A DNA stretch of 44,359 nucleotides. It comes from Nitrososphaeria archaeon. GTDB taxonomy: Archaea > Thermoproteota > Nitrososphaeria > JACIWG01. The translations under genes and the position numbers were made by a program. Below, piece by piece: positions 14,309-43,185 of the stretch; within the stretch, counting starts at the first letter, position 1; each line of letters starts with the position of its first letter. The stretch lies in contig JARVJS010000021.1 in assembly GCA_029776125.1 (NCBI GenBank), positions 1 to 44,359 of the forward strand, written 5' to 3'. The notes beneath the pieces are model-generated. The model saw nothing but the letters and a program-made list of their open reading frames with translations, did not search any database and was not told the DNA's origin.

Positions 14309-14309
14309 T

Positions 14310-15435: not shown

Positions 15436-15437
15436 CT

Positions 15438-15812: not shown

Positions 15813-15848
15813 CTATCTATCACCTCCTTTTTATGCTGAAATTTATAT

Positions 15849-15904: not shown

Positions 15905-15905
15905 G

Positions 15906-16193: not shown

Positions 16194-16212
16194 ATTTCCT
16201 CCTTATTGCTTT

Positions 16213-27184: not shown

Positions 27185-27199
27185 TGCTATATCCTCCCA

Positions 27200-28924: not shown

Positions 28925-28927
28925 GAT

Positions 28928-29635
28928 TTATTCTCCTTGTTTTAACATATTTTCAATGAGTGGAATATTAGCACCAAATACCATTCTGCCATTTATAAAA
29001 TATGTAGGTGTTCCTCTTATGCCAAACTTTTCAGCGGTTTCAAAATATTTTTTTATCGTTTCTTCAGATTTCTTCAAACACTCTGCAGAAACGTCCTGCC
29101 CATTTTTTAATCCAGACATAATTTCCATATATGCCTTTTCTTTATCTTTACTGCATAAAATGTAAGAAACTTTTTTCTTTGAAGTTTCCCCCTTAAAGGG
29201 CAAGAAAAATATGTGTTCTGTTACATCATTTCTCTTTGAAAAATATTCGTATCCCCTTTTACAGAAAGGACATTCAGGATCAGTAAAGGTTACGACCTTA
29301 TTTTTACCCTTACCCACCTTTACTGCTATAGATGTATCCATGTTTTTAAGTTTTTCAATTATTATTTCTTGCCTTCTTTCCGCAGTAAGCGATTTACCTG
29401 TTGATGTCCATATTTCACCAAATACCATGTAACCTCTTGGTGACCAATACATTATGTTCCCATCTGTAGTTATAATTTCGTATAAACCTGGGATTGGCGA
29501 CTCTGTTACTTTTGATAGAGAAAAATTAGGGAAAATTGCCTTAATTTGTTTTTCTACGTCTTCCTTAGATTGCTGAGCAAACACAACTGATACGAAAAGC
29601 AATACAAAAAATACTGAAAATAAAAGTTTCTTCAT
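28928..29635 (-). CDS. dsbC: Thiol:disulfide interchange protein DsbC-like
   Basis: 235 aa. Signal peptide, N-terminal dimerisation-like domain, active site TDPECPFCKR and a cis-Pro block GTPTYFING. Confidence 0.85.
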   Translation of the reverse strand: MKKLLFSVFFVLLFVSVVFAQQSKEDVEKQIKAIFPNFSLSKVTESPIPGLYEIITTDGNIMYWSPRGYMVFGEIWTSTGKSLTAERRQEIIIEKLKNMDTSIAVKVGKGKNKVVTFTDPECPFCKRGYEYFSKRNDVTEHIFFLPFKGETSKKKVSYILCSKDKEKAYMEIMSGLKNGQDVSAECLKKSEETIKKYFETAEKFGIRGTPTYFINGRMVFGANIPLIENMLKQGE

Positions 29636-29685: not shown

Positions 29686-29738
29686 CCTATATATAGGGTA
29701 CACTGATGTATCAAAACTGGATAAGGACTTTTGAAAGG
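29686..29738 (-). promoter_or_regulatory. Element promoter-like motif, copy 7 (hybrid: class B half-site plus class A core)
   Basis: Transcribed strand reads CCTTTCAAAAGTCCTTATCCAGTTTTGATACATCAGTGTACCCTATATATAGG. It sits 50 nt upstream of the dsbC ATG. The leader contains a 9-bp hairpin, TGAGCTTTC-ATTA-GAAAGCTCA (29659-29680). Confidence 0.65.
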
Positions 29739-29748
29739 TTATATATTT

Positions 29749-31353
29749 TTAGTTAGCAGAAAACCAGATTTGAACGTATCCATCACCTGAATTTGCCCCT
29801 GACTGTGAACTCGTACAGTTAAATCCTGAACGACAATAACCAGAACCACCACCGCCTCCACCACCATTTCCATTTCCACCTGCACCACCGCCACCGCCAT
29901 ATCCGGCTCCACCGCCTCCGCCACCCCATTCATTTCCACCTGCACCGCCACAACCATAACCGCCACTACCACCATATTTAGTGTATGAGTAGTGAACATA
30001 TAAAATACCGCCTGAAAAATCAGATGACGCAGGTCCATATAAAACATTACTTCCATTATAATAACGACCCCTACCACCATAACCTAAAGAGCCATTGTCT
30101 CCATAATAAGTACTACCACTATATGTAAGCCCACCACCTGCACCACCATATCCACAAGCACCACCTCCACCTGAAGCATAACCACTTGAAGCATTACTAC
30201 CACCACCTCCGCCACCTGCTACACCCCAACCTGTGGTTCCTACCGAACCTCCACCATTTGTAGTACCACCACTTCCTTGACCACCGCCTCCACCACCTAA
30301 TCCTGCTTTATTTCCACCAGCACCTGCTGCAGTTCCGCCATAACCACCACTACCTCCACCTGCACTACCATTACTACTACCACCGCCACCAGAGCCACCT
30401 GCACCGTTATATCCGGCTCCACCGCCTCCGCCTGCTACAAGCAATATATTGCTGTAACCAACACTATCTATCCATACAGCAGATGCACCACCACCGCCAG
30501 CACCACCATACGCACTGGAATTATCACTTGTTCCATCAAAACCTTTCCCACCTACTAAAATTCTTAATGCTAAAGTTGTCCTATTTGGAAACATAGTGTT
30601 CAGGTCAGATATTTTAATTTTCCCTACAGTAACACCACCGTTACCACCTAAATATTGTATAGTTCCCACATTATTTACAGCATGACCACCTCTACCGCCT
30701 GCAACTATTATGTTTAAGTAATAATTACCACATCTAGACACATAATCTTGCCAATTATAAACAAAAAAATTCTTTAATCCATATTCAAAATAATTCACAT
30801 TATATAAATTCAAATTATTACAAAATACATCATCAGAAGTAGCACCGCCACCAGAGCCACCGCTACCACCTACGTCTCCATGAAATCCTTCTACCACTAT
30901 GTCGTTTCCCTGAACTTCTGTGTCTGTACAAGCAGTCTGAAAGGTTTTATCACGACCTGCAGAGATTACTCTGATTATCAATCCACTTTTTGGTGGTGTT
31001 GTATTGTTTTGTGAATAAGTAGGATTAGCAGTGTTTGGACTTCCTAAATCCCATGTGCAGTATCTATACTGAGTTCCCCATTCGTCTACCTTGCTCATAG
31101 GTAAATCTGCCGGAAGTGTATTGCCTGATGCTTCTTTAAGAGGTTCTTTAAAGGTATCATTGTCAGGATCTGCTGTATTCATGAGCAACCAATTGACAAT
31201 ATTTGTCATTCTTTGCTTTGTAAGCAAAGTTTTTTGTGTATCCGTCATCAGGTTCCATCCCGAAACAACTTCAACTAAAGTATATGCCAGAATCATTAAA
31301 AAAGCTACTGCAAGTAAAACTTCTATTAATATAAACCCGCTATCTTTTCTCAT
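29749..31353 (-). CDS. Pilin-like protein with a large C-terminal glycine-rich domain (candidate pilus tip adhesin)
   Basis: 534 aa. Class III signal MRKDSG/FILIEVLLAV (G-1, F+1, E+5). About 365 C-terminal residues consist of GGxGG runs interrupted by short beta-like segments (YYLNIIVAGGRGG, LALRILVGGKG, NILLVAGGGGGAG), ending in GDGYVQIWFSAN. Confidence 0.7.
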   Translation of the reverse strand: MRKDSGFILIEVLLAVAFLMILAYTLVEVVSGWNLMTDTQKTLLTKQRMTNIVNWLLMNTADPDNDTFKEPLKEASGNTLPADLPMSKVDEWGTQYRYCTWDLGSPNTANPTYSQNNTTPPKSGLIIRVISAGRDKTFQTACTDTEVQGNDIVVEGFHGDVGGSGGSGGGATSDDVFCNNLNLYNVNYFEYGLKNFFVYNWQDYVSRCGNYYLNIIVAGGRGGHAVNNVGTIQYLGGNGGVTVGKIKISDLNTMFPNRTTLALRILVGGKGFDGTSDNSSAYGGAGGGGASAVWIDSVGYSNILLVAGGGGGAGYNGAGGSGGGGSSNGSAGGGSGGYGGTAAGAGGNKAGLGGGGGGQGSGGTTNGGGSVGTTGWGVAGGGGGGSNASSGYASGGGGACGYGGAGGGLTYSGSTYYGDNGSLGYGGRGRYYNGSNVLYGPASSDFSGGILYVHYSYTKYGGSGGYGCGGAGGNEWGGGGGGAGYGGGGGAGGNGNGGGGGGGSGYCRSGFNCTSSQSGANSGDGYVQIWFSAN

Positions 31354-32342
31354 TTTCCTGCCTTTTTAATAACAAAAACACTTAAACCATCTGCTTTTTC
31401 TGCGGTAAAAATTGGAGTCTTTTTCTCAAACCTTAGTTTGTTTTCAACATGCTCATGCTGATTTTCTCCTGTAACTATGTAAATTAACTTGTCGTTTGAA
31501 CAATAAAACACTTTCCCTATTCCTTCTACATTAACAACAGAACAGTGATTCTTTAGGTTTTCATTTACCGCCTGCACTCTGTCTTTGTAAACTATTAGTT
31601 CAGTATTTTTCTTTTTTATTTCTTCTCTTAATTTTTCGTTCTCCATTGTTAGGCTTTCAACTTGAACTGCCATACTTTTGTACTTCTGTAATTCCTCACG
31701 AAGCCTCTTTATGGTTTCGTCCTTTTCTGTAAAAATACTATAATTTTCCCTGCGTTCTTCTTCTATTTGTTGTAATGTTTTATTGTGGCTGCTATCCAAC
31801 TGTTGAATTGCTTTTTCTTTTTCCTTTAATTGCCGTTGTAAATTTTTAATCGTGTTTTCAAAATCCTTAATTTTTGCTTCTAATTCTTTCTTTTCCTGTT
31901 CTATCTTTATGTTTTTTTGTTCAAGCTCCTTTTGCTGTTTTTTTTGTTTTTCTTTTAAAACTTTTTTATGTGCATCACAAATTAATTCAGGATACTCTAC
32001 AATACATCCGTCCACCTCATCACCGTTATTAACAGATAGCCTTTTACCTAAAGAATTAATAACTATAATTTTCCCATTTACAACCCCTTTGATTTGAGGA
32101 AAATTTTCTTTGCCTGCAGACACAGGTTCAGGCATTTTAGTTAAAGGCATTGGAGGAGGTATAGCTTCAGGCTTTTTGTCTACCGTTTCTGATTGTTGAA
32201 ATTTTGCTTTCTTACTACTTCCACTTTTATCTTGACCTGTCTTATTTTGACCTGAGTTATAAAAAGGTGTTTCAACTGCCAAAGCTATATGCCACATAAA
32301 AAACAAAAACATTAATACTAAAATATTTAGCCTTTTTCTCAT
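31350..32342 (-). CDS. Secreted coiled-coil protein, possible PilP/GspC-like pilus alignment component
   Basis: 330 aa. Signal peptide. IKGVVNGKIIVINSLGKRLSVNNGDEVDGCIVEY resembles the PilP/GspC HR beta-domain. It is followed by a coiled coil of about 130 aa. Functional call is weak. Confidence 0.4.
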   Translation of the reverse strand: MRKRLNILVLMFLFFMWHIALAVETPFYNSGQNKTGQDKSGSSKKAKFQQSETVDKKPEAIPPPMPLTKMPEPVSAGKENFPQIKGVVNGKIIVINSLGKRLSVNNGDEVDGCIVEYPELICDAHKKVLKEKQKKQQKELEQKNIKIEQEKKELEAKIKDFENTIKNLQRQLKEKEKAIQQLDSSHNKTLQQIEEERRENYSIFTEKDETIKRLREELQKYKSMAVQVESLTMENEKLREEIKKKNTELIVYKDRVQAVNENLKNHCSVVNVEGIGKVFYCSNDKLIYIVTGENQHEHVENKLRFEKKTPIFTAEKADGLSVFVIKKAGK

Positions 32343-32791
32343 TTTACATACACCTCTTTTTCTTTTTTAGGAATTACTGTAAAACTTACTACTCTTTCTC
32401 CACAGTTTATACCTAAACACAAATTAGAGTATTCAATCTTATAAGGAAAACTACTGATAAAATCTAAAAAGGATAAAAACTTTTCATATTCTTCTTTGTT
32501 TATTAATATTTCCTTTTTGTTTGAAAACAAAATAAAACCTTCATTACCTTGTTGTACTTCAATGGGCAAATTGTTGCTTCTTATATAATTTTCAAGTACT
32601 TGTTTTATAAAAATAGACTCTCCAGAGGAAAGACTCACAAAATCTTTTTTTAGATTTATTTTTATATCCTGATTTAAAACTCTCTGAACATCATTTTTAT
32701 AAAAAATAATGCTATATATAAGCAAAAAAACACCGCTACATACTAAAATCAAGGGAAAAAACAACCTTATTATTTTCATAAGTTCCTCCAT
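32339..32791 (-). CDS. Bitopic membrane protein, possible PilO/GspM-like
   Basis: 150 aa. One N-terminal TM (IIRLFFPLILVCSGVFLLIYSIIF) and a small periplasmic domain. The assignment rests on operon context only. Confidence 0.35.
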   Translation of the reverse strand: MEELMKIIRLFFPLILVCSGVFLLIYSIIFYKNDVQRVLNQDIKINLKKDFVSLSSGESIFIKQVLENYIRSNNLPIEVQQGNEGFILFSNKKEILINKEEYEKFLSFLDFISSFPYKIEYSNLCLGINCGERVVSFTVIPKKEKEVYVK

Positions 32792-33557
32792 GCATTTCTA
32801 AAAACTTTTGTGCTGACATTTCTTTGTCAAAATATACTTCTACAACAAATTTTTTATCACTCTGATATATCTTTAAAATTTTTCCATCCTCTATACTCTT
32901 TTCAACTTTATTGAGTAAATCTGCCAAACTGATTTTTGCAGAAGTGGAAACATTAACTTGCGACATTAACTGATTCTGTCGATTTTTTAAAATTAAATCT
33001 TTTTTGTTGTACGCTTCGTTCAATACAAAAAAATAAGTTAACAATCCCACAAAAAAAACCACTAAACCAATACTTAAATAAGACTTGTTGTCAAGAGACC
33101 AACGCAATCTAAGTTGTTTAGGTATTTTACCTACTGATAAAAGCAAATCTTCATTAATTTCTACGCCACTTTCAGGCTTTTTATAGGTTATTACATGTTG
33201 AATTTCATTGCCTTTGCTAATAAAATAGTGGTAGAACTCTTTATTTTTATCCTTTAGATAATAATCTCCTTCCCCCATAAAAACAACGCTTAATACAGGA
33301 AACTTTCCCTTAACAAAATTTTTTGACTTGCCTGCTATAAATAACAAAACTCCATTTTTGTATGTGTAGGTATAGTAAAAATTATCGCCTAAAATGGGGA
33401 TACATCTTCCCTTAATGTAGTTCTCTATTTCCCGCTTGGGAATAACTACGCTTTCAGCAACATACTCTTCAAGATGAACAAAATCTTTAAGCTTTTTTTT
33501 CTCTGAGACTTGAACCCGATCGTCAATCTTTGTTTCACTTTTTTTCCTCTTAAACAT
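32736..33557 (-). CDS. Bitopic membrane protein, possible PilM-N/GspL-like
   Basis: 273 aa. About 155 aa cytoplasmic, TM YLSIGLVVFFVGLLTYFFVL, then a periplasmic tail. SD AAGGAAGG. First gene after motif copy 8. Context-based call. Confidence 0.35.
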   Translation of the reverse strand: MFKRKKSETKIDDRVQVSEKKKLKDFVHLEEYVAESVVIPKREIENYIKGRCIPILGDNFYYTYTYKNGVLLFIAGKSKNFVKGKFPVLSVVFMGEGDYYLKDKNKEFYHYFISKGNEIQHVITYKKPESGVEINEDLLLSVGKIPKQLRLRWSLDNKSYLSIGLVVFFVGLLTYFFVLNEAYNKKDLILKNRQNQLMSQVNVSTSAKISLADLLNKVEKSIEDGKILKIYQSDKKFVVEVYFDKEMSAQKFLEMHGGTYENNKVVFSLDFSM

Positions 33558-33591
33558 TGTCCTTCCTTTTGTATGTTTTGTCTAATACCCT

Positions 33592-33625
33592 CTCTCTATA
33601 TATAGGGTACATGAATGTATCAAAA
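33592..33625 (-). promoter_or_regulatory. Element promoter-like motif, copy 8 (class A)
   Basis: Transcribed strand reads TTTTGATACATTCATGTACCCTATATATAGAGAG. It lies 3 nt after the pilC stop and 34 nt upstream of the next ATG. Confidence 0.65.
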
Positions 33626-33628
33626 GCA

Positions 33629-34798
33629 TTAATTCCCCATTCCCATCATCAACTTCAAATAAGGAACAAATACTGAGAAAAAGGTTAACAGGAAAATACC
33701 CATAACCATAACTAAAGAAATTGTATAAATTAATGGAGATAGCAACCGAATAGCAGATATGTATTTATCATAAAAACGTCTCGCTACTATTTCAAAGTTC
33801 TTTGAGAGTTTGTCTACATTTAAAGACCAACCAACAATTTGTTTATCAAATTCAGGTATTGTTTTGAATCCATTAACAAAAGGTTCCCCCTTCTTTAATT
33901 TCTTTAATGCGCTTTCAAACTCATCACGAACTACTTTTATTGAAATTGTTTTACTAACTATCTCAAAAGCACTAGACAGCCTAATGCCAACTGACAATAA
34001 TTTGGACATGGAAAAAAAACCAATAAAATATGCACGATAAAATAATAGTTCCCTAATTAAAGGAAGTCTTAAAAATTTACTCTCAATAAATTTTTGATTT
34101 ATTCTATAAATTATCAAAGCTACAAAAATTAGCCCTACAAAAAAAATTAACGCTAGAGGAATACCAATAGAAGCAATTTTGAGAAAGTTTATTGCCCACA
34201 CATTTGGTGAACTAGATATTAATACACTTTTAAACAACTCAGAAGACAATAGTTTAGGAATTATAACCCTTGTATTTATTATTAACAAAAGTAAACTTAT
34301 CATAAACACTGTGACTGGATAAGACAACTTCTTTAATATCTCTTTCTTAGTTGTGTGTAAATCAATTAAATACTGCGAAACTACGTTTAAAGTTTTCGAC
34401 AAATCTCCCGTATTATACCCCGCTTTTAACATTTGTACCGCTGTTTCGCCAAAATAAACACTGTAGCCCTGTATTGCTTCAGGAAAACTTTTACCCGACT
34501 CTATCATTTTCTTAATGTTTAAAAATACCTGTTTATAAGGACTTTTATAACTTATTGACTTTACTAAAGAATCTATGGCATTTGAAAGAGACATGCCTGA
34601 CGTTAAAATGTCAGATAATGCTTGAAAAATATACGCTAATTCTAACTGCTTATACTTAATTATATTTACTGAATGAATCTTTTTTATTTTTAAAACTACC
34701 TTACCTTCTTTCGAAAAAGTTTTATAAATTTCATCTCTGTTTCCAACAAATATTTCCACGAATTTAGCGTTATTTTTAAAATACTCTACCCTATACAA
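33629..34798 (-). CDS. Type IV pilus/T2SS platform protein (PilC/GspF family)
   Basis: 389 aa. Two GspF-like repeats, each followed by TM segments, and three or more TM helices in total. Lies directly downstream of the ATPase. Confidence 0.85.
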   Translation of the reverse strand: MYRVEYFKNNAKFVEIFVGNRDEIYKTFSKEGKVVLKIKKIHSVNIIKYKQLELAYIFQALSDILTSGMSLSNAIDSLVKSISYKSPYKQVFLNIKKMIESGKSFPEAIQGYSVYFGETAVQMLKAGYNTGDLSKTLNVVSQYLIDLHTTKKEILKKLSYPVTVFMISLLLLIINTRVIIPKLLSSELFKSVLISSSPNVWAINFLKIASIGIPLALIFFVGLIFVALIIYRINQKFIESKFLRLPLIRELLFYRAYFIGFFSMSKLLSVGIRLSSAFEIVSKTISIKVVRDEFESALKKLKKGEPFVNGFKTIPEFDKQIVGWSLNVDKLSKNFEIVARRFYDKYISAIRLLSPLIYTISLVMVMGIFLLTFFSVFVPYLKLMMGMGN

Positions 34799-34810
34799 AG
34801 CAACCCTCTC

Positions 34811-36337
34811 TTAATTTGCGTGGCCTATTGACTCTGCAAAATTAAGTAACTCTATTCCTAAAACTCTTTTAATCTCTTCTTTATTGGTTATGCCTTGACT
34901 AACCTTGTATACTGCGTCTTCATACATAGTGTAATAAGGCAACTTTCCTTCCATTAAAGCAATAACTTCTTTATAGCTATTAAATCTAACTATTTCAGAA
35001 ATCATAGTTCTCCCCATATATCCAATCCCTGAGCAAAAAGAACAACCTACTCCAAAACAATTTTTACAAATTTTTCTTACGAGTCTTTGAACTAGTATTC
35101 CTTTTAGCAGAAACGACAGCGCTGTCATGTCTACGCCTAAACCTTGAAGCCTTATTAACGTTGAAGGAATGTCGTTTGTATGTAATGTAGAAAAAACTAG
35201 ATGCCCTGTGTCTGAAAGTGTTAAAGCATTCACTGCCGTCTCTCTGTCTCTTATTTCACCAACTATAATTACATCTGGGTCGTGCCTTACTATTGTCTTT
35301 AAATACATAGCAAAATCAAAACCCGCTTTTCTGTTTATCTGTACCTGATTTATAAAAGGAAGATGATACTCAATAGGGTCTTCTATGGAGTAAACTGTTT
35401 TGTGGATTCTGTCAAGCCACTGCACCGTTGCATACAAGGTGGTTGTTTTCCCTGACCCTGTAGGACCACAAACCAAAACTAAACCTGTCTGCTGAGAGGA
35501 AATTTCCAACCAATCGTTTATCTTGGTAAGCCCTAATTCATTTATATCTAAAAGCATTTTTTCTCTATCAAGTAATCTTATGGATACTTTCTCTCCATTT
35601 GCCGAAGGTAATGTAGCCACTCTTAAATTTATTAACCTGCCACAATAAGAATAAGAAAACGAACCATCCTGCGGTAGCCTCGTTTCTGAAACGTCCATCC
35701 CTGCACGATTTTTAATTGCAGTTACAAGTAAAGAATGTATTTCTATAGGTAAATACATTTTTATATACAAAACACCATCTATTCTATATCTAATTATTAC
35801 CACTTTTTCCTGCGGTTCTATGTGTATGTCAGATGCTCTGCTGTTTAACGCGTCTAAAAACAATTCATTTGTTGCAAGTATAGTTTCCTCTCTTTCTAGT
35901 AAAGATTTAACCCTGTAATCAATGTCATAAACCTTTACATTTTTCATCTCCAAATATTTTTGATAAAGTAAATTAGCAGGATAAGAAACCAACTGCACAA
36001 TCTTGCCTCTTGCATACTGCTCTACAATTTGCTTTGCTTCCATAGGAGAATCATGCAGAGTTGCTACATATAAAGTTTGTCCTGTATCTCCTAAAACTAC
36101 AGTTTTTGTATCTAGCAATATGTCAAGAGGTATATCAAAGGACGAAAAATTCTCTCCAATTAACGCTTCAGGACAAATTACGCAAAGTGCGTTTAATATG
36201 TGCTGCCTTTTGACAAAATTTAACCTTATAAGTATTTCTCCAAGCTTTTCACCCGTTATTTCCTGCTGCTTAAGCGCTATTTCAAGCTGTTCTTCGTTTA
36301 TTATCCCTTGCTGTAGTAAATACTCTCCAAGTCTCAT
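34811..36337 (-). CDS. Type IV pilus/T2SS assembly ATPase (PilB/GspE/MshE family) with MshEN N-terminal domain
   Basis: 508 aa. Walker A GPTGSGKTTT, Asp box and His box regions, tetracysteine CKNC ... CSFC. The N-terminus RLGEYLLQQGIINEEQLEIALKQQ fits the published 24-residue MshEN motif exactly. Confidence 0.9.
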   Translation of the reverse strand: MRLGEYLLQQGIINEEQLEIALKQQEITGEKLGEILIRLNFVKRQHILNALCVICPEALIGENFSSFDIPLDILLDTKTVVLGDTGQTLYVATLHDSPMEAKQIVEQYARGKIVQLVSYPANLLYQKYLEMKNVKVYDIDYRVKSLLEREETILATNELFLDALNSRASDIHIEPQEKVVIIRYRIDGVLYIKMYLPIEIHSLLVTAIKNRAGMDVSETRLPQDGSFSYSYCGRLINLRVATLPSANGEKVSIRLLDREKMLLDINELGLTKINDWLEISSQQTGLVLVCGPTGSGKTTTLYATVQWLDRIHKTVYSIEDPIEYHLPFINQVQINRKAGFDFAMYLKTIVRHDPDVIIVGEIRDRETAVNALTLSDTGHLVFSTLHTNDIPSTLIRLQGLGVDMTALSFLLKGILVQRLVRKICKNCFGVGCSFCSGIGYMGRTMISEIVRFNSYKEVIALMEGKLPYYTMYEDAVYKVSQGITNKEEIKRVLGIELLNFAESIGHAN

Positions 36338-36343
36338 AGTGTA

Positions 36344-36874
36344 TTAAAACCTTACCATCCAATAGGTAACTATAACCTGTGTAGCTGTGTCTGGATCTGT
36401 CATGTTAGAAGAACTTGGACAAGTAGTGTTGTAATAAATTTTATTTGGATAATTAAGCGCCAAATCTTTTATTGTTTTAAACACTTCTGATGAACTTGTT
36501 ACAGCAGGAGTTTTTACGCAAACATAATATCCACTATCGTTTTTAAACATTAAATAACCATTTACCCCATAAGAAGTATCAAGCTCAGAAGACACCTTCG
36601 GTGGCATCAGAAAGGAAGGCACAAAATTAGTGTCAGACAATAAATTACTTGCGTGCGTAGGGTAATCATTTTTCGTGGTAACAAAAAAACCAAGTGCACT
36701 TTCCATTGCAGTAAAATCTGAAATCAATCTTGACTGTAATGTTTTCTTCTTGTTTTCTGCCATGTTTACATTAACAAGTGGTACTACAATAGCAATTATT
36801 AACGCCAATAAAGTTACCACCACTACTAATTCAATCATTGTAAATCCAGTATTACTCATTAACCTTTTTTTCAT
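36344..36874 (-). CDS. Type IV pilin/pseudopilin (second)
   Basis: 176 aa. MKKRLMSNTG/FTMIELVVVV (G-1, F+1, E+5). SD AGGAGAGG. Confidence 0.8.
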   Translation of the reverse strand: MKKRLMSNTGFTMIELVVVVTLLALIIAIVVPLVNVNMAENKKKTLQSRLISDFTAMESALGFFVTTKNDYPTHASNLLSDTNFVPSFLMPPKVSSELDTSYGVNGYLMFKNDSGYYVCVKTPAVTSSSEVFKTIKDLALNYPNKIYYNTTCPSSSNMTDPDTATQVIVTYWMVRF

Positions 36875-36890
36875 TTTTCCTCTCCTCTTA

Positions 36891-36921
36891 CAAGAAGCGA
36901 GGGGGTTTCCCTCGCTTCTTG
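36891..36921 (-). other. 13-bp-stem GC-rich hairpin filling the gap between the two pilin genes
   Basis: CAAGAAGCGAGGG-GGTTT-CCCTCGCTTCTTG, a perfect stem. No U-tract follows on the minus strand; the SD of the next pilin follows immediately. Confidence 0.6.
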
Positions 36922-37455
36922 CTATTTTGCTACTACCTGTTTTAATGCAATGTTGTTAGTGCCATCATTGTAACATTGTATGCTTTTGCCAGTTGTAACA
37001 GCATTGGGAATAGCATCGTTTTCTCCCGCTCCTGCATAAAGATGGTTAATCTTTTTGCACACATCATCCGTAATCCCCTCAAGCAATATCACCGTGTCTT
37101 TAGTTGTTGATCCACCTAAATTATAATTAGTAGTATCAACTGTGTAGGCAAATGTTCCTGAATAGCCTGATTTTTTAGCAGCTGATGGTGGTTCTGGTTT
37201 TGCCTTTAGTATTCCCTCCGTCACTATTGCATCAATACTTGCAGGCTCAGTAGTCTTAGAAACGTAATACTGATTCCACGCTTCATCAAGAACTCTCAAG
37301 TTGTCTGCAATCTGTACAGCAGAAGACTGAACTGAAGTTTTCTGCAATGGATTACCAAGAAAACTGAAAAGCAAAACCGCAATTAGAGCAAGAACAATGA
37401 TGACAATCAGTAACTCCAGCAGTGTAAACCCCTTCTCATTTCTTAATGCTTTCAT
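36922..37455 (-). CDS. Type IV pilin (probable major subunit)
   Basis: 177 aa. MKALRNEKG/FTLLELLIVIIV (G-1, F+1, E+5). SD GGAGGTA. Followed by a strong hairpin. Confidence 0.85.
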   Translation of the reverse strand: MKALRNEKGFTLLELLIVIIVLALIAVLLFSFLGNPLQKTSVQSSAVQIADNLRVLDEAWNQYYVSKTTEPASIDAIVTEGILKAKPEPPSAAKKSGYSGTFAYTVDTTNYNLGGSTTKDTVILLEGITDDVCKKINHLYAGAGENDAIPNAVTTGKSIQCYNDGTNNIALKQVVAK

Positions 37456-37489
37456 TTCAAATACCTCCTTCTTTTTTTTATTAAACCTC

Positions 37490-39055
37490 TCATGAGGTTT
37501 TACTCTTTTTTAAAGGAACAAACTCAATTATGGTTGGTTTGACCAGTATTACAAGCTCCTCCTTTGTCTTAGTCCTGTTCATCTCCTTTGTTAACACAGT
37601 GTCAAACCCTGGTAAACCATGAGTAGTCCCTAGTTCTTTCTCATAAATCAATCCTCCTAACAAAACAACCTGCTCTGGAGACATTCTTATGTATGTGTCC
37701 ACCTTTTTAACCGCAGTTTCAGGTTGCGTTATGTTGCCAATTTGTTGCCCCGCATTTAAAGTTATTAGCCTTACTACTTCAGACACGTTTACCTTTAAAT
37801 TAATACTTAAAACATCAAAACTTTTGTCATAATAGGGTAATACTTCCATCTCTACACCACTTTTTGCTTTCTCGCTTGTTGCGGTACCTATGGTGGTTCC
37901 AGAAGTCCCAGAAGTAGACAGAGAAACCTCTTTTATGTAAGGTATCTCCCTTGCTACTTCAATTTTTCCCTTTACTCCTGAAAGCGTCTGTATGTATACG
38001 TCCTGAAGAATTGAATACTTTCCATAACTTTCAAGAAAACTTAAAAGCCCAGATAAGGTAAACTTGTTTCTCTCTAAAAACACCAACGCTCCTACATCGT
38101 TTGTTACCACCCCTACCCCTGTTTTGTATAAAGTTTCAGTAGTTGTTCTCAATGTAGTTGTGCTCTCCGAAGTAGAACCATTGTTATTTATATTGTTATC
38201 ACTACTCTGAATTAATTGACTATCAAATATGGACTTCATCTTTTGAGAACCCCACCCAAAATTTAATCCGCTCCAGTTTATTCCTATGTTTTTGTCAGAA
38301 CTAAAACTTACTGAAAGCAATACTATCTTCAGATTAATTAAAGAAGCGTTTTTTAAAAAGCCTTCTAAAAATTTTCTTATTCTTTCATAGCTGTTATAGT
38401 CTGCTGTAAAGCTTAGCGTAGTAGTTAAATTGTTATAAGCAATGTTAAATCCACCTAACTTCTCTATGCTTTCTTTTAAATGCTTCAATAAATCAGGATA
38501 GTTAGGAACAGAAATGTTAAAAATTTTACTCTTTTCAACAACTATTGTTCTGTCGTCGTGACAGTTAAAAAAATAACCCGTTTTTTGAGAAAGTAACTTT
38601 AACAAATTATCTACTTTGCCTTTATATTTTAAGGTCAATAAGGGTTCATTTTGACTACTAACAACAGATATAGCCGGAACTCCTTGTTTTTCTGTTGTCC
38701 CAGGTTGAGACATTAAAACACCACTACACCCTGCATTACCGCAAGACTCTATGATAACTCCTATGTTCAAAGTTGAATACAAAGAAGATATAATAGTTTT
38801 TATATCTGCATCTATAAATTCTATATCCACATCTTCGCTAATTTTGCATTGTGAATCCTCTGCTTTTATTAAAAAACCATCGTCTATAGGAATTTGTAAT
38901 TTTGCAGGTGTTACCTGCATTTCATTCTCAATTTTTGTCTGTTTTTCTTTTACAATTTCAGATATGTTGTCTGATTGAATTTCTTTCATTGAGGTACAAG
39001 AAACTAACATTAAAGATAAACACAATAAAATTAATACAAATTTTCGTTTAATCAT
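37490..39055 (-). CDS. Secretin, lipoprotein type (PilN-R64/PilQ/GspD family)
   Basis: C-terminal secretin domain (GVEMEVLPYY ... VVLLGGLIYE ... GLPGF ... ELVILVKPTII). Lipobox LMLVSCTS. The ORF is open to 39094, but the ATG at 39055 has SD AAGAGG and yields a normal signal peptide. Confidence 0.85.
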   Translation of the reverse strand: MIKRKFVLILLCLSLMLVSCTSMKEIQSDNISEIVKEKQTKIENEMQVTPAKLQIPIDDGFLIKAEDSQCKISEDVDIEFIDADIKTIISSLYSTLNIGVIIESCGNAGCSGVLMSQPGTTEKQGVPAISVVSSQNEPLLTLKYKGKVDNLLKLLSQKTGYFFNCHDDRTIVVEKSKIFNISVPNYPDLLKHLKESIEKLGGFNIAYNNLTTTLSFTADYNSYERIRKFLEGFLKNASLINLKIVLLSVSFSSDKNIGINWSGLNFGWGSQKMKSIFDSQLIQSSDNNINNNGSTSESTTTLRTTTETLYKTGVGVVTNDVGALVFLERNKFTLSGLLSFLESYGKYSILQDVYIQTLSGVKGKIEVAREIPYIKEVSLSTSGTSGTTIGTATSEKAKSGVEMEVLPYYDKSFDVLSINLKVNVSEVVRLITLNAGQQIGNITQPETAVKKVDTYIRMSPEQVVLLGGLIYEKELGTTHGLPGFDTVLTKEMNRTKTKEELVILVKPTIIEFVPLKKSKTS

Positions 39056-39106
39056 TTTTGCCTCTTTTTTAATTTGTTTTTGAACTATTTGCATTTTTTG
39101 TATTTT

Positions 39107-39159
39107 CTATATATAGGGTACTTTCAAGTATCCTTATTGGATAAGGACTTTTGAAAAGG
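39107..39159 (-). promoter_or_regulatory. Element promoter-like motif, copy 9 (class B)
   Basis: Transcribed strand reads CCTTTTCAAAAGTCCTTATCCAATAAGGATACTTGAAAGTACCCTATATATAG. It lies between the HD-GYP stop and the secretin start. Confidence 0.65.
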
Positions 39160-39178
39160 TGAAACAAAAAAGTTTCAC
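39159..39178 (-). terminator. Weak AT-rich hairpin GTGAAAC-T6-GTTTCAC overlapping the HD-GYP stop
   Basis: 7-bp stem followed by CTTTTC on the minus strand. Low predicted stability. Confidence 0.3.
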
Positions 39179-40095
39179 AAAATTGACAAAAAAGCCTTTA
39201 CATTTTCTTCGCCAAATTTTTCCTTATTTGCTTTTATGTAACTTAAGGCTATATCTTGATCTATAGCAGTCCTGTATGGACGATTGTTTATTAAAGCATC
39301 ATAAACATCTACTATTGCTACTATTTGTGCTTCTACAGGTATTCCATTTTTTGTCAAACCATAGGGATAACCCGTTCCATCACATCTTTCATGATGAAAA
39401 ACACAAATATTTTTTGACATTTCTTTAATGTTTTTGTCTAAAAACTTCAGTTGTCCAGCTACCAGCCCTCCCCAAATTGTATGAAATTCTACGACTCTTC
39501 TCTCTACTATAGTTAGTTTGCCTTTTTTGTTTAAAAGAGAGCTTGGAATAAACATTTTCCCTATATCATGCAGTAAACTTGCCAGACTTATTTGTTCAAC
39601 AAATTCATTGCCTAAGTTTAAATAAGCCGCCATCCTACGGGAAAGAGTAGAAACCATTTTGGTATGATGAACCCCTTCTAATGCAGAAACTATTGCTAAT
39701 ATTCCCTCTTTTAACAAAGTTTTATCACTATTTAACTTTAATATAGAATAGTAATACCCTAAAAATATGTTTAAATCTGCTATGTTCCAAAAACAGGGAA
39801 CTTTCTTTAAATATAGTGTCTTAACTATATAACCCAATTTGTCTCTAGTAACTCCATCACATAGGTTACAAGGATAATAAATAACCGCATCTACACCAAC
39901 CTCAATTAGCCTGTCTATATAGTCAAATACTTTTTTTGTTATGTTTCTTGTCTGTATTATATAAAGACTTTCTCCATTTACACTTACCGGCTCTCCCATT
40001 TTCTCAACCTCAACATCTAACCCATAAAACATAAAAACAGGTATATCATTAAATTTTTCTATATCTCTTTCGTCTTCCATTACCCACTTGAACAT
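39175..40095 (-). CDS. HD-GYP domain c-di-GMP phosphodiesterase with an uncharacterised N-terminal domain
   Basis: 306 aa. LLHDIGK ... HHERCDGTGYPYGL ... VDVYDAL. The first 150 aa or so are unassigned. Confidence 0.85.
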   Translation of the reverse strand: MFKWVMEDERDIEKFNDIPVFMFYGLDVEVEKMGEPVSVNGESLYIIQTRNITKKVFDYIDRLIEVGVDAVIYYPCNLCDGVTRDKLGYIVKTLYLKKVPCFWNIADLNIFLGYYYSILKLNSDKTLLKEGILAIVSALEGVHHTKMVSTLSRRMAAYLNLGNEFVEQISLASLLHDIGKMFIPSSLLNKKGKLTIVERRVVEFHTIWGGLVAGQLKFLDKNIKEMSKNICVFHHERCDGTGYPYGLTKNGIPVEAQIVAIVDVYDALINNRPYRTAIDQDIALSYIKANKEKFGEENVKAFLSIL

Positions 40096-40127: not shown

Positions 40128-41807
40128 CTAATCATTTCGTGGCGGATATACTCTTTTAATATCCAACAACCTACCCTCTTTCATTACCTCTAAAGGTCCT
40201 ACATCTATTCCAAACGCCTCTTTCGCCCTGAAAGGTACATATAACGCCCTGGAAATTCTCTTACCATCTTTATCCTCTAATATGAAAGGCGCAGAAAAAT
40301 ATCCATCCCTGATTAGCGAAGTCTCTATACCATCTAACTCATCTCTTACTCTACATAAAACTGAATACACATAATCCCTCTTTATAGATTTGTCCGAACT
40401 TGCTAAATCTAATATGCCCCGCTCCTCTGCCATTACTTTAAGCTCAGTAAATATTAAATCAGGCAAAACATAAACTACTCCATTGTTCATACTAAATGCT
40501 TTCCATGTTTTTTTATCGTCAAGTATGTTTACATGCCTCCTAATCCTACCTAAAAACTCTCTAAGATCTAACCATTCAAGAGGAACTCGCTTGGGCTTGT
40601 TTTCTTTCCTTTGGTTTTCCAATACACCTGCATCAGGACTGATAAATATGTTAGAATAATTGCTGGCTTCAATATCTTTCATCCTCTCATATTTGCAATT
40701 TCCTTGCCTTTCCTCCTCAAGTCCAAATATTTCAGGCACACCATTAAAAGCACTTTCGTTCTCTTGCTCTGACAATATATACTGGCTTAAACCAAAAACA
40801 CTTAACTGAGATTGTTTGTTCGTTCCTTCGTTTGATACCGTTTGATTTGTTGTTTTCTCTGTCGTTTGATTTATATCAGGTTTGGTGGGGGTTTGATGGG
40901 TTTGATGGGTTTGATCCTGTTTGATAAATTCTGTATTTCTTTCTGTAGTGTCCAATGTAGAGACTACAGAAACTGTACTGCTTACATGAGGGTCTCCTGT
41001 CTGCCCCAATACTTCCTCCGTTAGTATTACATTGCTTGTCTGACTTAATTCCCTACGCCTTGCCCTCTGGTCTGCTTCCTTTAAATACTCTGTTAACTTG
41101 TCCTTCGGCTTTAGGTGATGATCCCGCACTGCTTTTAGCACATCATCTGCATATACAAGATTTTTAAAATCAGGTAACTGCTCTAATACGCTTACGCTTA
41201 TAAATGGATGATCCCCAAAAGCATAATACTGTTGCCTGTATTTTGGTATCTTGCCTATGTCATGCCCAAGTGCTGCAATTATTCCCTTCGGTATCATTGG
41301 ACCATAAGGAATTATCTGTATTATCTCCTCTGCCACATGAATTGTATGCTCAAGTAAAGAAATACTGCTTAGTTTCTTATAAATGTCCTGCCCAATTTTC
41401 CCTTCCGTGTCTTGCTGTCCTGATACAACAGAGGATACATTGCCTTCTGTATCAAGCAAAGTCAACAAATTTAATATAACCTTCTTGGTATTGCCAGTAA
41501 AAAAAAGTTTTCCTTCTATATGCTCTTTAAAAAATTTGTTTAATGCTTCGCTGTAAAACTTTATCTCCTCTTTCTCTGTATCGCTTTCCGACTTTATAGA
41601 ACGCCAGAGCAAAGAAAGTTCTTCTATGTTGAGAATGGCTTCCTTTCTTTTGCTCCAGATTACTGCTATGGTATCAAGAACTATTGTTTGTCTCTGCTTT
41701 TTTGACGTTTTTTTTGTACTTTTAGGTAATATAAAATCCCTAGCAACCCAAAACAACATAGCACTCCCTGCTATTCCTGCAACAAGAAAAACTTCACTAT
41801 GCAACAT
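40128..41807 (-). CDS. HD-domain protein, candidate MOB-H-type relaxase (TraI_2-like), with N-terminal TM
   Basis: 559 aa. LLEHTIHVAEE ... AALGHDIGK ... DHH (HD domain). C-terminal NNGVVYVLPDLIF ... resembles the TraI_2 C-terminal domain. Thr/Gln-rich linker. Its start overlaps the T4CP stop by 11 nt. The relaxase role is an inference. Confidence 0.5.
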   Translation of the reverse strand: MLHSEVFLVAGIAGSAMLFWVARDFILPKSTKKTSKKQRQTIVLDTIAVIWSKRKEAILNIEELSLLWRSIKSESDTEKEEIKFYSEALNKFFKEHIEGKLFFTGNTKKVILNLLTLLDTEGNVSSVVSGQQDTEGKIGQDIYKKLSSISLLEHTIHVAEEIIQIIPYGPMIPKGIIAALGHDIGKIPKYRQQYYAFGDHPFISVSVLEQLPDFKNLVYADDVLKAVRDHHLKPKDKLTEYLKEADQRARRRELSQTSNVILTEEVLGQTGDPHVSSTVSVVSTLDTTERNTEFIKQDQTHQTHQTPTKPDINQTTEKTTNQTVSNEGTNKQSQLSVFGLSQYILSEQENESAFNGVPEIFGLEEERQGNCKYERMKDIEASNYSNIFISPDAGVLENQRKENKPKRVPLEWLDLREFLGRIRRHVNILDDKKTWKAFSMNNGVVYVLPDLIFTELKVMAEERGILDLASSDKSIKRDYVYSVLCRVRDELDGIETSLIRDGYFSAPFILEDKDGKRISRALYVPFRAKEAFGIDVGPLEVMKEGRLLDIKRVYPPRND

Positions 41808-43164
41808 CAGCTGCTGCCTCCGGAAATTTTACATCTATGTATCTGTCTGTTACATCTATGGTTCTACCTTTAAACCTACCCTTGTAAGTCATCAAATAAA
41901 ACTGTCTTGGCGGTAAACTTAGTACATCGTAAGGTTTTATGATCGGTTCCTCTGATTCTTTTGTTGTTATGCCTGCGTTTGTAGTCAACACAGGTGATAT
42001 TTTCTTTTTCGTGCCAAAGTGTTCTGCTACATATTCTGCAGTCTCAGGATCAGGAACTCTCATGAATAGCTTTGTATTTGTGTTGTCAAGTATGGAACGA
42101 CCAAAATCTTTACCTACTCTTGAGTAAATCTGATTAACTGACTGACTAAAACCATGCACCCAAACTCCTGCTCCACCTGCTTTGGCAAATAAATCCTCTA
42201 TATCATAATAAAGTGTGTTTTGTGCTTCGTCTATATAAAGTGCTAAAGGTGGATTTACTGTTTTACCAGAAGAAAACACCCTACCAACATAACTCTGAAT
42301 CATACTGATTACTACCTTACCAAGAGTAAACGCTGCTTTTCTTGTAAGGAGACTGCCAAGATGAACTACCATTATGACTCTCTGTCCAGATTCAAGTCTC
42401 TTAATAAATCTGTTTTCGTCTGCCTTACCTATTATCTTTCCTATGTTTCCAGAAGAAAGTTCCATCAGAGCAACTCTCAAAGAAGATGACACCTTTGAAT
42501 AGTAATCCTGCGGTGAATTCACAATTTTAAGAATATCCTGTTCCAGTTGTCTTGCTTCAGGTAAATCTATAGATTGAACTTCATGTAGTAATTTCTCAAT
42601 TTCTTCTTTACTCATTCTGTCTTTTACTTCATTAAGGTTAAAGGAATGAGGCTTGCCTTCAACTTTAGCTTTAAGCAACAAAGACTGCACAATTATCATG
42701 CTAATTTCGTAAGCTACATTGTAAAAAAACGGCTCCTTTACATCTACGCCACTTACTATGTGTCCTACAAGTTCCTCTGGCATATAGTAAAAAGCAAGTG
42801 GGTCTATTAACGCAGAATACTCAGGGAAAATTGCAGTTACAAGTATTAATTCTTCGTGCCTGCTTTCCTCAAAGGCAACTTGCACTACCTTTGAAAATAA
42901 CTCTATATCACCTTTTGGATCTACAATTACTACCGAATATCCTTTCCTTATGTCCTGCTCAACCATACTCTCTATAAGCCTTGTCTTACCCACTCTGGTA
43001 GTCCCGAAACACCAAAAATGCCCTTTTCTGTCAGAATCAGGTATGGAAATCGTAATCTTTTGAGAGGGATTATCCATTGAATAACCAACTCCTAAAATAG
43101 TTTTTTTCTCCTTCACCGCTTCATCTACCAAATTTTTCTCCTTACTGAAAAATTTAAACATCAC
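41797..43164 (-). CDS. Type IV coupling protein-like ATPase (TraD/VirD4/TraG family) lacking TM segments
   Basis: 455 aa. Walker A GTTRVGKT, VVIVDPKGD, Walker B LYIDEAQ and a C-terminal TraG-D_C-like block (LFMRVPDPETAEYVAEHFG). No hydrophobic N-terminus. Confidence 0.7.
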   Translation of the reverse strand: MMFKFFSKEKNLVDEAVKEKKTILGVGYSMDNPSQKITISIPDSDRKGHFWCFGTTRVGKTRLIESMVEQDIRKGYSVVIVDPKGDIELFSKVVQVAFEESRHEELILVTAIFPEYSALIDPLAFYYMPEELVGHIVSGVDVKEPFFYNVAYEISMIIVQSLLLKAKVEGKPHSFNLNEVKDRMSKEEIEKLLHEVQSIDLPEARQLEQDILKIVNSPQDYYSKVSSSLRVALMELSSGNIGKIIGKADENRFIKRLESGQRVIMVVHLGSLLTRKAAFTLGKVVISMIQSYVGRVFSSGKTVNPPLALYIDEAQNTLYYDIEDLFAKAGGAGVWVHGFSQSVNQIYSRVGKDFGRSILDNTNTKLFMRVPDPETAEYVAEHFGTKKKISPVLTTNAGITTKESEEPIIKPYDVLSLPPRQFYLMTYKGRFKGRTIDVTDRYIDVKFPEAAADVA

Positions 43165-43185
43165 TTTCTTTTCCTACCTGCTTAA

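Follow-up and report, generated by a model that had tools for sequence, protein, structure and literature searches.

An F-type conjugative element carrying an MshEN-type pilus ATPase and an HD-GYP protein that are inherited separately among its relatives

The window analysed here, a stretch of 44,359 nucleotides, is an F-type conjugative element, probably of a Thermodesulfovibrio-like host, in which the genes for a type IV pilus ATPase with an MshEN-type N-terminal domain and for an HD-GYP protein share a strand and are separated by only a few others. The first is a candidate receptor for c-di-GMP and the second a candidate c-di-GMP phosphodiesterase (PDE). A preliminary description had taken the two for a self-contained circuit. 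Their place on one element and one strand was borne out, and a promoter-like 15-mer appears to precede both transcription units, but across related elements enzyme and receptor are not inherited together. We lean towards the view that the element joins two independently inherited c-di-GMP parts, any coupling between them being a by-product of juxtaposition rather than a co-evolved dedicated circuit.

The element was assigned to the F-type because of its F-type secretion system (T4SS) genes. By Pfam, the F-type (MPF_F) set is complete (TraC, TraU, TraN, TraF, TraH, TraG, TraE, TraK, TraB, TraV and TrbC), and a coupling protein is also present. The principal features are the following.

6511..29635, minus strand: F-type T4SS genes TraG, TraH, TraV, TraB/TrbI, TraK, TraE, TrbC, TraU, TraN, TraC, TraF, S26 peptidase and DsbC (Pfam)
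29687..29742, minus strand: direct repeat of about 50 nt, downstream copy, just upstream of DsbC (alignment)
29743..39105, minus strand: separable type IV pilus module, 9.4 kb (Pfam, NCBIfam; absent from locus L087, present in L001, L003, L004, L006 and L174)
29749-31353, minus strand: Gly-rich pilin-like protein
31350-33557, minus strand: three small proteins of the pilus module
33629-34798, minus strand: PilC (Pfam, NCBIfam)
34811..36337, minus strand: PilB/MshE/GspE-type extension ATPase, 508 aa (Pfam T2SSE, E 5.7e-97; PDB matches PilF, GspE and PilB)
36344-36874, minus strand: pilin (Pfam, NCBIfam)
36922-37455, minus strand: pilin (Pfam, NCBIfam)
37490-39094, minus strand: secretin (Pfam, NCBIfam)
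39107..39161, minus strand: direct repeat of about 50 nt, upstream copy (..AAAGTCCTTATCCA..GATAC..GTACCCTATATATAG), after the HD-GYP stop codon and before the secretin gene (aligned with the downstream and L087 copies)
39175..40095, minus strand: HD-GYP protein, 306 aa, catalytic domain at about residues 105-306 (Pfam HD_5; 4MCW by sequence and fold)
40128..44007, minus strand: backbone block ahead of HD-GYP (Pfam, NCBIfam), made up of the next three
40128-41807, minus strand: HD-domain protein, 559 aa, occupying the expected relaxase position (Pfam, NCBIfam)
41797-43164, minus strand: TraD-type coupling protein, T4CP (Pfam, NCBIfam)
43186-44007, minus strand: NusA-like protein, 273 aa (Pfam, NCBIfam)

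The backbone runs T4CP, HD protein, HD-GYP, DsbC, S26 peptidase, TraF and TraC. The order of the 273-aa protein, T4CP and HD protein was kept across 80 related metagenome loci wherever coverage allowed; some of these loci gave no detectable match to the 273-aa or the HD protein, mostly at contig cuts. The nearest NCBIfam model of the T4CP was the SXT-type TraD, with a score below the cut-off of that model. The 559-aa protein matched an HD domain and no other domain in Pfam and NCBIfam, and its plasmid homologues are mostly annotated as 'HD domain-containing protein'; a MOBH-like role for it is conjecture. No cyclase gene is encoded by the element, and any effects of c-di-GMP through the pilus or HD-GYP would therefore all depend on the c-di-GMP of the host.

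The pilus is IVa/MSHA-like, with short leaders (G|FTLLE), and the secretin scored highest with the MSHA-type MshL model of NCBIfam. Accessory type IV pili occur on other conjugative elements, the thin pilus of R64 and the type IVb pilus of PAPI-1 being encoded among the transfer genes and probably aiding mating-pair formation. Those are type IVb pili on I-type or G-type elements, whereas the pilus of the window is IVa/MSHA-like and belongs to an F-type element; the R64 and PAPI-1 systems are not known to have ATPases with MshEN domains. The term mating pilus, used in the preliminary description, denotes here a candidate role. The element has a full F-type T4SS besides.

Two copies of the direct repeat flank the module in the window. 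A single copy is present in L087, whose alignment to the window skips from 39106 to 29742 and so contains no pilus module. The flanking repeat fits either history, insertion of the module in the window or its deletion from L087. A search with a single 45-nt pattern for the repeat gave no match because the spacing differs between copies. Its promoter-like 15-mer core does match, with 10 occurrences in the window against 0.1 expected, and the transfer and pilus transcription units each appear to be preceded by it.

The ATPase core has a Walker A motif (GPTGSGKT) and a tetra-cysteine site (C424/C427/C432/C435), all invariant in a subfamily formed with 13 relatives of 39-64% identity. The ATPase is no strict orthologue of GspE or PilB, as it scored below the cut-offs of both equivalog models in NCBIfam. 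A scan of genome contigs with the ATPase revealed no sister element; all its matches were generic PilB/GspE proteins (33-41% identity), and tblastn against plasmids gave generic matches only. Its N-terminal part was delimited as follows.

36176..36334, minus strand: MshEN_N region of 53 residues (ATPase residues 2-54), with motif I at 2-25, the spacer EITGE and motif II at 31-54 (regular expression; NF053729; 5HTL)
35858..36337, minus strand: whole MshEN/GSPII-type domain, ATPase residues 1-160 (AlphaFold model, Foldseek)

The N-terminus reads MRLGEYLLQQGIINEEQLEIALKQQ-EITGE-KLGEILIRLNFVKRQHILNALCVI. As originally described, motif I (residues 2-25, RLGEYLLQQGIINEEQLEIALKQQ) fits RLGxx[LVI][LVI]xxG[LVI][LVI]xxxx[LVI]xxx[LVI]xxQ at all constrained positions; across all six translated frames of the window this pattern matched once, against about 1.8e-5 matches expected from composition. 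The NCBIfam model NF053729 ('c-di-GMP_motif, MshE-related') matched residues 2-51 with 64.5 bits, as compared with a curated cut-off of 38 (E 5.6e-18), and matched 13 of the 14 subfamily members at E <= 0.001. By phmmer, residues 2-101 aligned with the MshEN domain of Vibrio cholerae (5HTL, E 2.7e-9). Modelled with AlphaFold (pLDDT 85), residues 1-160 form a four-helix bundle (helices 3-9, 15-28, 32-38 and 44-54) and an alpha/beta C-subdomain. Foldseek against the PDB ranked 5HTL first for this model (E 2.6e-7), and each of the first 20 matches was an MshEN/GSPII domain, PilF GSPII-B and Xanthomonas citri PilB-N being the other leading ones; the TM scores were low (0.35-0.43) owing to uncertain orientation between the subdomains. 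Pfam T2SSE_N (PF05157) was not matched by the ATPase or by its N-terminal 168 residues, even with E values as high as 10 allowed; the scan gave only weak matches to DUF2949 and DUF4388. Sequence and modelled fold together indicate homology, not chance, and make the N-terminus of the ATPase a genuine domain of the MshEN type.

This domain resembles that of V. cholerae MshE (5HTL; Wang et al., 2016, PMC5013675), in which a tandem-motif four-helix bundle of 53 residues, followed by an alpha/beta subdomain, forms the N-terminus of a T2SSE-type pilus extension ATPase; in motif I the two agree wherever the pattern is constrained. The window protein differs from MshE in the start of its motif (residue 2, against residue 9 in MshE), in falling under the Pfam T2SSE_N threshold, in lying on a conjugative element and in being a predicted binder. 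It also differs in motif II, where, after the five-residue spacer, the degenerate second copy noted earlier was confirmed. In MshE numbering R38 is replaced by K31, G47 by N40, L54 by I47 and Q61 by I54, while L39, G40 and L58 are kept. K31-L32-G33, I47 and L51 are acceptable; the turn glycine is Asn40 and the terminal glutamine Ile54. The position of Q61 is hydrophobic in all 14 subfamily members, none of which has glutamine there, whereas Q25 of motif I is almost invariant.

In MshE, the Leu clusters and Gly11/Gly40 matter most for c-di-GMP binding, which is abolished by their mutation (PMC5013675); the corresponding residues are kept in the window protein as L3, G4, L18, L22, L32, G33, I47 and L51. 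Natural variation of the motif is also seen in the GSPII domains of Thermus thermophilus PilF (8PDK and others, 9G1W; PMC11731258, PMC12002112), three in tandem as compared with one here. PilF GSPII-B, with K167/L196 at the first motif position, binds c-di-GMP at 6 nM, and the first position of the consensus was widened to R/K/L (PMC11731258), so that the lysine at the start of motif II would be tolerated. The variable first residue of motif I (R/K/L/T in the subfamily) was considered as evidence against binding and was dropped, as R/K/L are all accepted (PMC11731258). Single Gln-to-Glu changes in GSPII-B lowered affinity 77-158-fold (PMC11731258). On these comparisons the N-domain plausibly, and probably, binds c-di-GMP, and such binding would most likely be weaker than that of MshE because motif II has no terminal glutamine.

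The motif is, however, neither strictly necessary nor sufficient for binding (PMC5013675, PMC12002112). PilF GSPII-A, which pairs a near-consensus motif I with a degenerate motif II much as the window protein does, is a non-binder even with the consensus restored (PMC12002112) and gives the chief caution here; binding is thus not inferable from the motif alone. It is possible, if rather unlikely, that the MshEN-like domain has lost c-di-GMP binding, as in XpsE or GSPII-A, and is a structural or interaction domain by which the ATPase docks onto the pilus platform or an adaptor, in the manner of the Xanthomonas PilB-N/PilZ complex. This would agree with the hydrophobic residue at Q61 throughout the subfamily, the asparagine at the G47 turn in the window, the failure of T2SSE_N to match, and Foldseek matches that include the PilB-N/PilZ complexes 7LKM, 7LKN and 7LKO. 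It sits less well with a perfect motif I, the retention of Q25, Gly11, Gly40 and the Leu triads, and the wide margin over the NF053729 cut-off; moreover, the MshEN authors hold that perfect conservation is not needed for binding (PMC5013675).

The HD-GYP protein was recognized by Pfam HD_5 (101.3 bits, cut-off 27.2) and matched 4MCW by sequence (E 8e-25) and by fold (E 2.8e-10). Its signature HHERCDGTGYP has the full HHExxDGxGYP form. In an alignment of 20 sequences H144, H176-D177, H205, H234-H235-E236, G242-Y243 and D263 were invariant, and D239 and P244, both present, nearly so; the HD-GYP residues align to 4MCW and the metal ligands (H, HD, H, HH, D) are complete. All catalytic signatures are therefore in place, in agreement with the preliminary description, which had also placed this protein three genes upstream of the ATPase; the three genes in between encode the secretin and two pilins. 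The structure model (pLDDT 87.5) matched PmGH (4MCW), PA4781 and c-di-GMP-bound DvhD in Foldseek. From its conserved residues and modelled fold, the protein is likely to be a c-di-GMP-degrading enzyme. Its N-terminal part was mapped as follows.

39796..40095, minus strand: orphan alpha/beta N-terminal domain of HD-GYP, about residues 1-100 (Pfam, Foldseek and HMMER searches)

An unassigned N-terminal domain of about 150 aa had been proposed. The N-terminal part indeed has no Pfam match, but its unique portion is about 100 aa, since helices 105-140 belong to the HD-GYP fold. Foldseek gave no confident fold match for it, only weak flavodoxin/REC/SIS-like ones (E > 0.1), and an exhaustive HMMER search of 1.84 billion representative proteins found only its own family member P0125 below E 1e-10.

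HD-GYP and the pilus ATPase were then separable in both directions among related loci. In the sister element (L087/L088) HD-GYP is present and the pilus module absent, HD-GYP being followed directly by DsbC in L087. HD-GYP is likewise present in L089-091, which have a secretin and an Ig-like protein instead of PilB, and in L093 and L095-097 it is degenerate (GYV form) and PilB is lacking; the L092 contig ends at the HD-GYP gene and is uninformative on the module. Conversely, the module with the same ATPase subfamily occurs without HD-GYP in L001, L003, L004, L006 and L174. Outside the window the module occupies three distinct sites in F-type elements, and two further loci that appear to be chromosomal also have it, in each case with no HD-GYP. 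Of the more distant loci, 45 continue for 4 kb or more downstream of the coupling protein; an HD-GYP homologue was found in 4 of these and PilB in none. Both were found in the window only, of about 90 related loci. The coupling proteins of L087, L089 and L092 are 91-93% identical to that of the window; for HD-GYP the identities are 50-74%, showing that it diverges independently of the backbone.

These distributions make it unlikely that the two parts form a dedicated local circuit, in which the N-terminal domain of HD-GYP would respond to a signal and the enzyme would set the c-di-GMP level for the MshEN ATPase, so timing extension or retraction of an accessory mating pilus. Such a circuit would be favoured by the shared strand with three intervening genes, between which no strong intrinsic terminator was found, and by the 15-mer ahead of both transcription units. 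There are precedents, in the parts of these reports available, for a PDE linked to pilus retraction (CdpA and the MSHA pilus, PMC8851539) and for synthesis under local c-di-GMP control in which an MshEN-bearing protein is involved (PMC8669469). In the divergent relative L001, moreover, an intact GGEEF cyclase with an RxxD I-site is encoded, together with CheW, immediately upstream of this pilus module. Enzymes of c-di-GMP have thus come to lie beside the module more than once, within about five genes of the secretin in 2 of the 4 pilus-bearing F-type elements (the window and L001), which, small as the sample is, could reflect a real functional linkage rather than chance. Of c-di-GMP domains besides HD-GYP, the screen of the related loci covered GGDEF, from a single seed sequence. 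The L001 enzyme is, however, opposite in sign, promoting synthesis rather than degradation.

It is highly improbable that HD-GYP has no part in pilus c-di-GMP signalling and hydrolyses 3'3'-cGAMP or the like, as do V-cGAP enzymes, for example to blunt CBASS-type immunity of the host, or has a DNA-processing or regulatory role beside the coupling and HD proteins. In favour of this, its backbone position right after these two is kept whether or not a pilus is present, cGAMP-specific V-cGAP3 (5Z7C) is among its sequence and fold matches, clade-B homologues have a degenerate GYP (HHEKYNGEGYV) with the HD ligands kept, and the orphan domain is confined to the element family. Against it, the best matches by sequence and fold are c-di-GMP-specific HD-GYPs (4MCW, PA4781 and c-di-GMP-bound DvhD), its own HHExxDGxGYP signature is complete, and PADLOC returned for it and the 559-aa protein only generic HD/Cas3 similarity, which does not support a known defence or anti-defence family.

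On the reading we favour, of two independently inherited parts brought together, the MshEN-type ATPase domain of the separable MSHA-like module probably binds c-di-GMP; if it does, pilus extension would depend on the cellular level of c-di-GMP, as in MshE and PilF. The backbone HD-GYP, last gene of the coupling-protein/HD-protein block, would most likely lower c-di-GMP in cells expressing the transfer genes. In MshE, bound c-di-GMP promotes pilus extension, and retraction is favoured when c-di-GMP is low (PMC7096442). By this analogy a co-expressed PDE that is not kept inactive by its N-terminal domain would damp the pilus, turn it off or make it retract; the earlier proposal that HD-GYP merely times extension does not fit this direction.

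The logic of that proposal is that of MSHA control in V. cholerae, where a PDE lowers c-di-GMP, the MshE-type ATPase loses its drive and the pili retract (Floyd, 2020, PMC7096442), nitric oxide stimulating retraction through CdpA according to the available part of PMC8851539. In contrast to the window enzyme, CdpA is chromosomal and is not homologous to the orphan-domain HD-GYP, and the enzyme and receptor of the window are not inherited together in relatives. Enzymes of c-di-GMP are also known from mobile elements, and section 10 of the review PMC10333796 cites those of SXT/R391 ICEs, PvrR on PAPI-1 and, for plasmids, Madsen 2018; turnover genes are reported there on 6-10% of plasmids, and GGDEF proteins are reported to raise conjugation rates. 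HD-GYP homologues occur on at least 578 PLSDB plasmid records. The window thus resembles these cases as a conjugative element with a c-di-GMP turnover gene, but its enzyme is an HD-GYP with an orphan N-terminal domain at a fixed backbone place beside the coupling protein and not in a cargo hotspot.

ATPases with MshEN domains, the control of MshE pili by a PDE and c-di-GMP enzymes of mobile elements have all been described before. With components that are individually familiar, the finding adds to what is known and does not alter it. The more useful leads are the orphan-domain HD-GYP at a fixed place in the transfer backbone and an MSHA-like pilus cassette that F-type elements have captured more than once, each time at another site. 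A wider proposal, distinctly unlikely on present evidence, is that in this Thermodesulfovibrio-like F-type family the backbone orphan-sensor HD-GYP makes conjugation gated by c-di-GMP or another cyclic dinucleotide, and that in the window the MshEN pilus module, acquired next to this enzyme, completes a portable pair of PDE and receptor able to control an accessory mating pilus whatever the wiring of the host. Should the ATPase bind and the HD-GYP be active, one conjugative element would carry both an adhesion or mating pilus responsive to the messenger and an enzyme that resets it, which, if true, would bear on how mobile elements steer the choice of their host between biofilm and motile life to favour transfer.

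All large ORFs of the window, an F-type conjugative element, lie on the minus strand. It encodes TraG, TraH, TraV, TraB, TraK, TraE, TrbC, TraU, TraN, TraC and TraF, along with an S26 peptidase, DsbC, a TraD-type coupling protein (T4CP) and an integrase. A type IV pilus gene set, comprising an MshL-like secretin, two pilins, a PilB/MshE-type ATPase, PilC, three small proteins and a Gly-rich pilin-like protein, sits between DsbC and an HD-GYP protein. The features considered here were as follows.

43-5697, window left end: capsule/polysaccharide genes (Capsule_synth, GT4 glycosyltransferase, Poly_export), with a type II-like N6 DNA methyltransferase and a tyrosine integrase
18561-22655: TraN homologue, 1364 aa, with an S-layer homology (SLH) domain (Pfam E 1e-16)
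29749-31353: Gly-rich pilin-like protein, 534 aa, with prepilin-type N-terminus MRKDSG↓FILIE
34811-36337, minus: ATPase, 508 aa, T2SSE family (Pfam E 5.7e-97)
39175-40095, minus: HD-GYP protein, 306 aa (Pfam HD_5, 101 bits)
40128-41807: HD-domain protein, 559 aa, overlapping the end of the coupling-protein gene
43186-44007: 273-aa protein with weak NusA-like similarity (E 4e-7)

The processing sites of the two pilins read G↓FT(L/M)(L/I)E; the window ORFs that were scanned included neither a prepilin peptidase nor PilT. The 534-aa protein has a long C-terminal region rich in Gly/Ser/Tyr and is possibly a pilus tip adhesin; its counterparts in the related metagenome loci L001, L003 and L006 match the N-terminal part only. 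An SLH fusion is unusual for the mating-pair stabilisation protein TraN. The 559-aa protein, at the expected relaxase position, has an HD domain as its one recognised domain, and did not match known relaxase profiles. Where coverage allows, related loci too encode it after the coupling protein, and homologues occur on Desulfosarcina, Trichlorobacter, Pelobacter and Geobacter plasmids. The 273-aa NusA-like protein lies upstream of the coupling protein in the window and in most related loci.

Positions 36176-36334 correspond exactly to ATPase residues 2-54, and the N-terminus reads MRLGEYLLQQGIINEEQLEIALKQQ-EITGE-KLGEILIRLNFVKRQHILNALCVI. The preliminary description had matched residues 2-25 to the published motif of MshEN, a c-di-GMP-binding-type domain built of two 24-residue copies (motifs I and II). 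The match was borne out: every constrained position was satisfied, and a six-frame scan of the window gave no other match, with ∼1.8e-5 expected from composition. Among the 120 best PilB-type homologues, just 15 carried one strict copy or more, and none a strict tandem pair. Pfam T2SSE_N did not match the ATPase. In phmmer, residues 2-101 aligned to the crystallised Vibrio cholerae MshEN (5HTL; E 2.7e-9), and the N-terminus also to GSPII-B, a domain of Thermus PilF that binds c-di-GMP. The score with the NCBI curated 53-residue model NF053729 ('cyclic di-GMP-binding domain, MshE-related') was 64.5 bits (cut-off 38). Residues 1-160, modelled with AlphaFold (pLDDT 85), formed four helices and then an alpha/beta subdomain; 5HTL was the model's best PDB match in Foldseek, and the top 20 were all MshEN/GSPII domains. 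TM scores were low (0.35–0.43), since the model leaves the linker (residues 62-65) and inter-subdomain orientation uncertain. Given the phmmer, NF053729, fold and Foldseek results, the assignment as a real MshEN domain is secure.

MshE holds c-di-GMP mainly via two Leu triads and the Gly11/Gly40 backbone amides; mutating either group lowers affinity >10-fold or abolishes binding, changes at Arg9, Asp12 or Gln32 reportedly cost <5-fold, and according to the authors perfect motif conservation is not needed (PMC5013675). The ATPase keeps L3, G4, G11, L18, L22, Q25, L32, G33, I47 and L51. It has K31 at the MshE Arg38 position; the first consensus position has since been widened to R/K/L, and PilF GSPII-B (K167/L196) binds at 6 nM (PMC11731258). 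Motif II truly departs at two positions, with Asn40 at the Gly47 turn and Ile54 for Gln61. Single Gln-to-Glu changes in GSPII-B cause a 77–158-fold loss, and the double change abolishes binding (PMC11731258). PilF GSPII-A, with one near-perfect and one degenerate motif, fails to bind c-di-GMP, even with the consensus restored (PMC12002112). Within the 14-member ATPase subfamily (39–64% identical to the window protein), Q25 hardly varies, the KLGEILIR stretch of motif II shows strong conservation, the Gln61 position is hydrophobic in all 14, and NF053729 matches 13 (E <= 0.001). On balance, c-di-GMP binding by the ATPase domain is rather more probable than its absence, and would probably be weaker than that of MshE.

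The HD-GYP protein retains H144, HD176-177, H205, HHE234-236, DGTGYP and D263, and nearly all signature residues were invariant in a 20-sequence alignment. It aligned to PmGH (4MCW; E 8e-25), and its model (pLDDT 87.5) matched 4MCW, PA4781 and c-di-GMP-bound DvhD. Residues ∼1-100 form a small alpha/beta domain. This domain had no Pfam match, a fold search of the model found no confident structural neighbour, and 1.84 billion representative proteins held no relatives outside its own family; these searches mark it as a predicted orphan confined to this element family. The nearest HD-GYP homologue from a named organism is that of Thermodesulfovibrio sp. 1176 (74% identity), and the window GC of ∼32–40% is in keeping with a Thermodesulfovibrio-like host. 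Clade-B relatives (L093, L095, L096, L097) have intact HD-type metal ligands and the degenerate signature HHEKYNGEGYV, which suggests that phosphodiesterase (PDE) function is altered or lost.

The preliminary description had joined the HD-GYP protein and the ATPase in a self-contained circuit. Related loci, considered with flanks of up to 10 kb, did not sustain this. Sister elements whose coupling proteins are 91–93% identical to that of the window share the order 273-aa protein, T4CP, HD protein, HD-GYP, DsbC, small ORF, S26, TraF, TraC. L087 and L088 have this order and lack pilus genes. The L087 alignment covered window 44063-39106 and then jumped to 29742-25608, delimiting a 9.4-kb pilus module; a ∼50-nt direct repeat found on both sides of the module is single-copy in L087. 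L089–L091 have a secretin and an Ig-like protein and lack the ATPase. There (L089 6284-9803), this secretin and 206-aa and 488-aa proteins lie between the HD protein and HD-GYP, with no ATPase or pilin genes; the 488-aa protein carries multiple Ig-like (ASH/HYDIN-type) domains. The Micrarchaeia label of the L089 MAG is probably a binning error.

In 80 more distant metagenome loci (T4CP 56–72% identical), the three backbone proteins kept the same order wherever coverage allowed. Forty-five of these had at least 4 kb downstream: four carried an HD-GYP homologue, always with HHEKYNGEGYV, and none a PilB-type ATPase or, in a screen with a single GGDEF seed, a GGDEF domain. Pilus modules with this ATPase subfamily lay upstream of DsbC (L001), after TraG (L004), after TrbC (L174) and among housekeeping neighbours only (L003, L006); HD-GYP was absent from all five within the same flanks. 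Upstream of its secretin, L001 carried an intact cyclase (RTED I-site and GGEEF) fused to a PfkB-like kinase domain (L001 4415-5749), and a stand-alone CheW (L001 6746-7153). A c-di-GMP enzyme was nearby in two of four pilus-bearing F-type elements (the window and L001), with opposite signs. Each part occurs without the other in relatives, and the evidence is against the HD-GYP protein and the pilus ATPase being one unit.

The 15-mer GTACCCTATATATAG is present in 10 window copies against 0.1 expected, nine of them on the coding strand.

44013, 39107, 33596, 29687, 15853, 15371, 11188, 5660, 3526: minus
5766: plus

Most copies are intergenic, and a gene block begins ∼20–50 nt downstream of them; genes leading such blocks include those for the secretin, a 273-aa pilus protein, DsbC, a T4SS pilin candidate and TraH. 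At the left end, one copy stands ahead of the capsule-type genes, and the copy at 5660-5674 is within the integrase ORF as called. The true secretin start is probably Met14. GTACCCTATATATAG is also the core of the ∼50-nt repeat flanking the pilus module, and probably acts as a promoter or operator specific to the element or the host. If so, the HD-GYP gene would close one transcription unit, the pilus genes would form the next two, and all three would be under the same control. A perfect 14-bp GC-rich hairpin (36891-36921), without a T-run on the coding strand, lies directly 3' of the first pilin gene and ahead of the second gene's Shine-Dalgarno sequence; it resembles an mRNA stabiliser or attenuator setting the pilin-to-machinery ratio.

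With MshE, c-di-GMP promotes pilus extension, and retraction is favoured when c-di-GMP is low (PMC7096442), and MSHA retraction is described as driven by the PDE CdpA (PMC8851539). By analogy, the backbone HD-GYP protein would lower c-di-GMP in transfer-competent cells, leaving the pilus ATPase less active; unless the enzyme is gated by its orphan domain, the pairing may thus be a brake or reset, not a simple timer. Elements that lack the pilus have HD-GYP too, so its primary target must lie elsewhere, for example in the host biofilm/motility state or the T4SS.

ATPases bearing MshEN are widespread, with >10,000 proteins reported to carry the domain (PMC5013675), and PDE control of MshE pili is established. 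Enzymes of c-di-GMP metabolism are common on mobile elements (6–10% of plasmids, SXT ICE enzymes, PAPI-1 PvrR; PMC10333796), and at least 578 PLSDB plasmid records have HD-GYP homologues. Less expected are an orphan-domain HD-GYP protein at a fixed backbone position and an MSHA-like pilus cassette that F-type elements have captured repeatedly.
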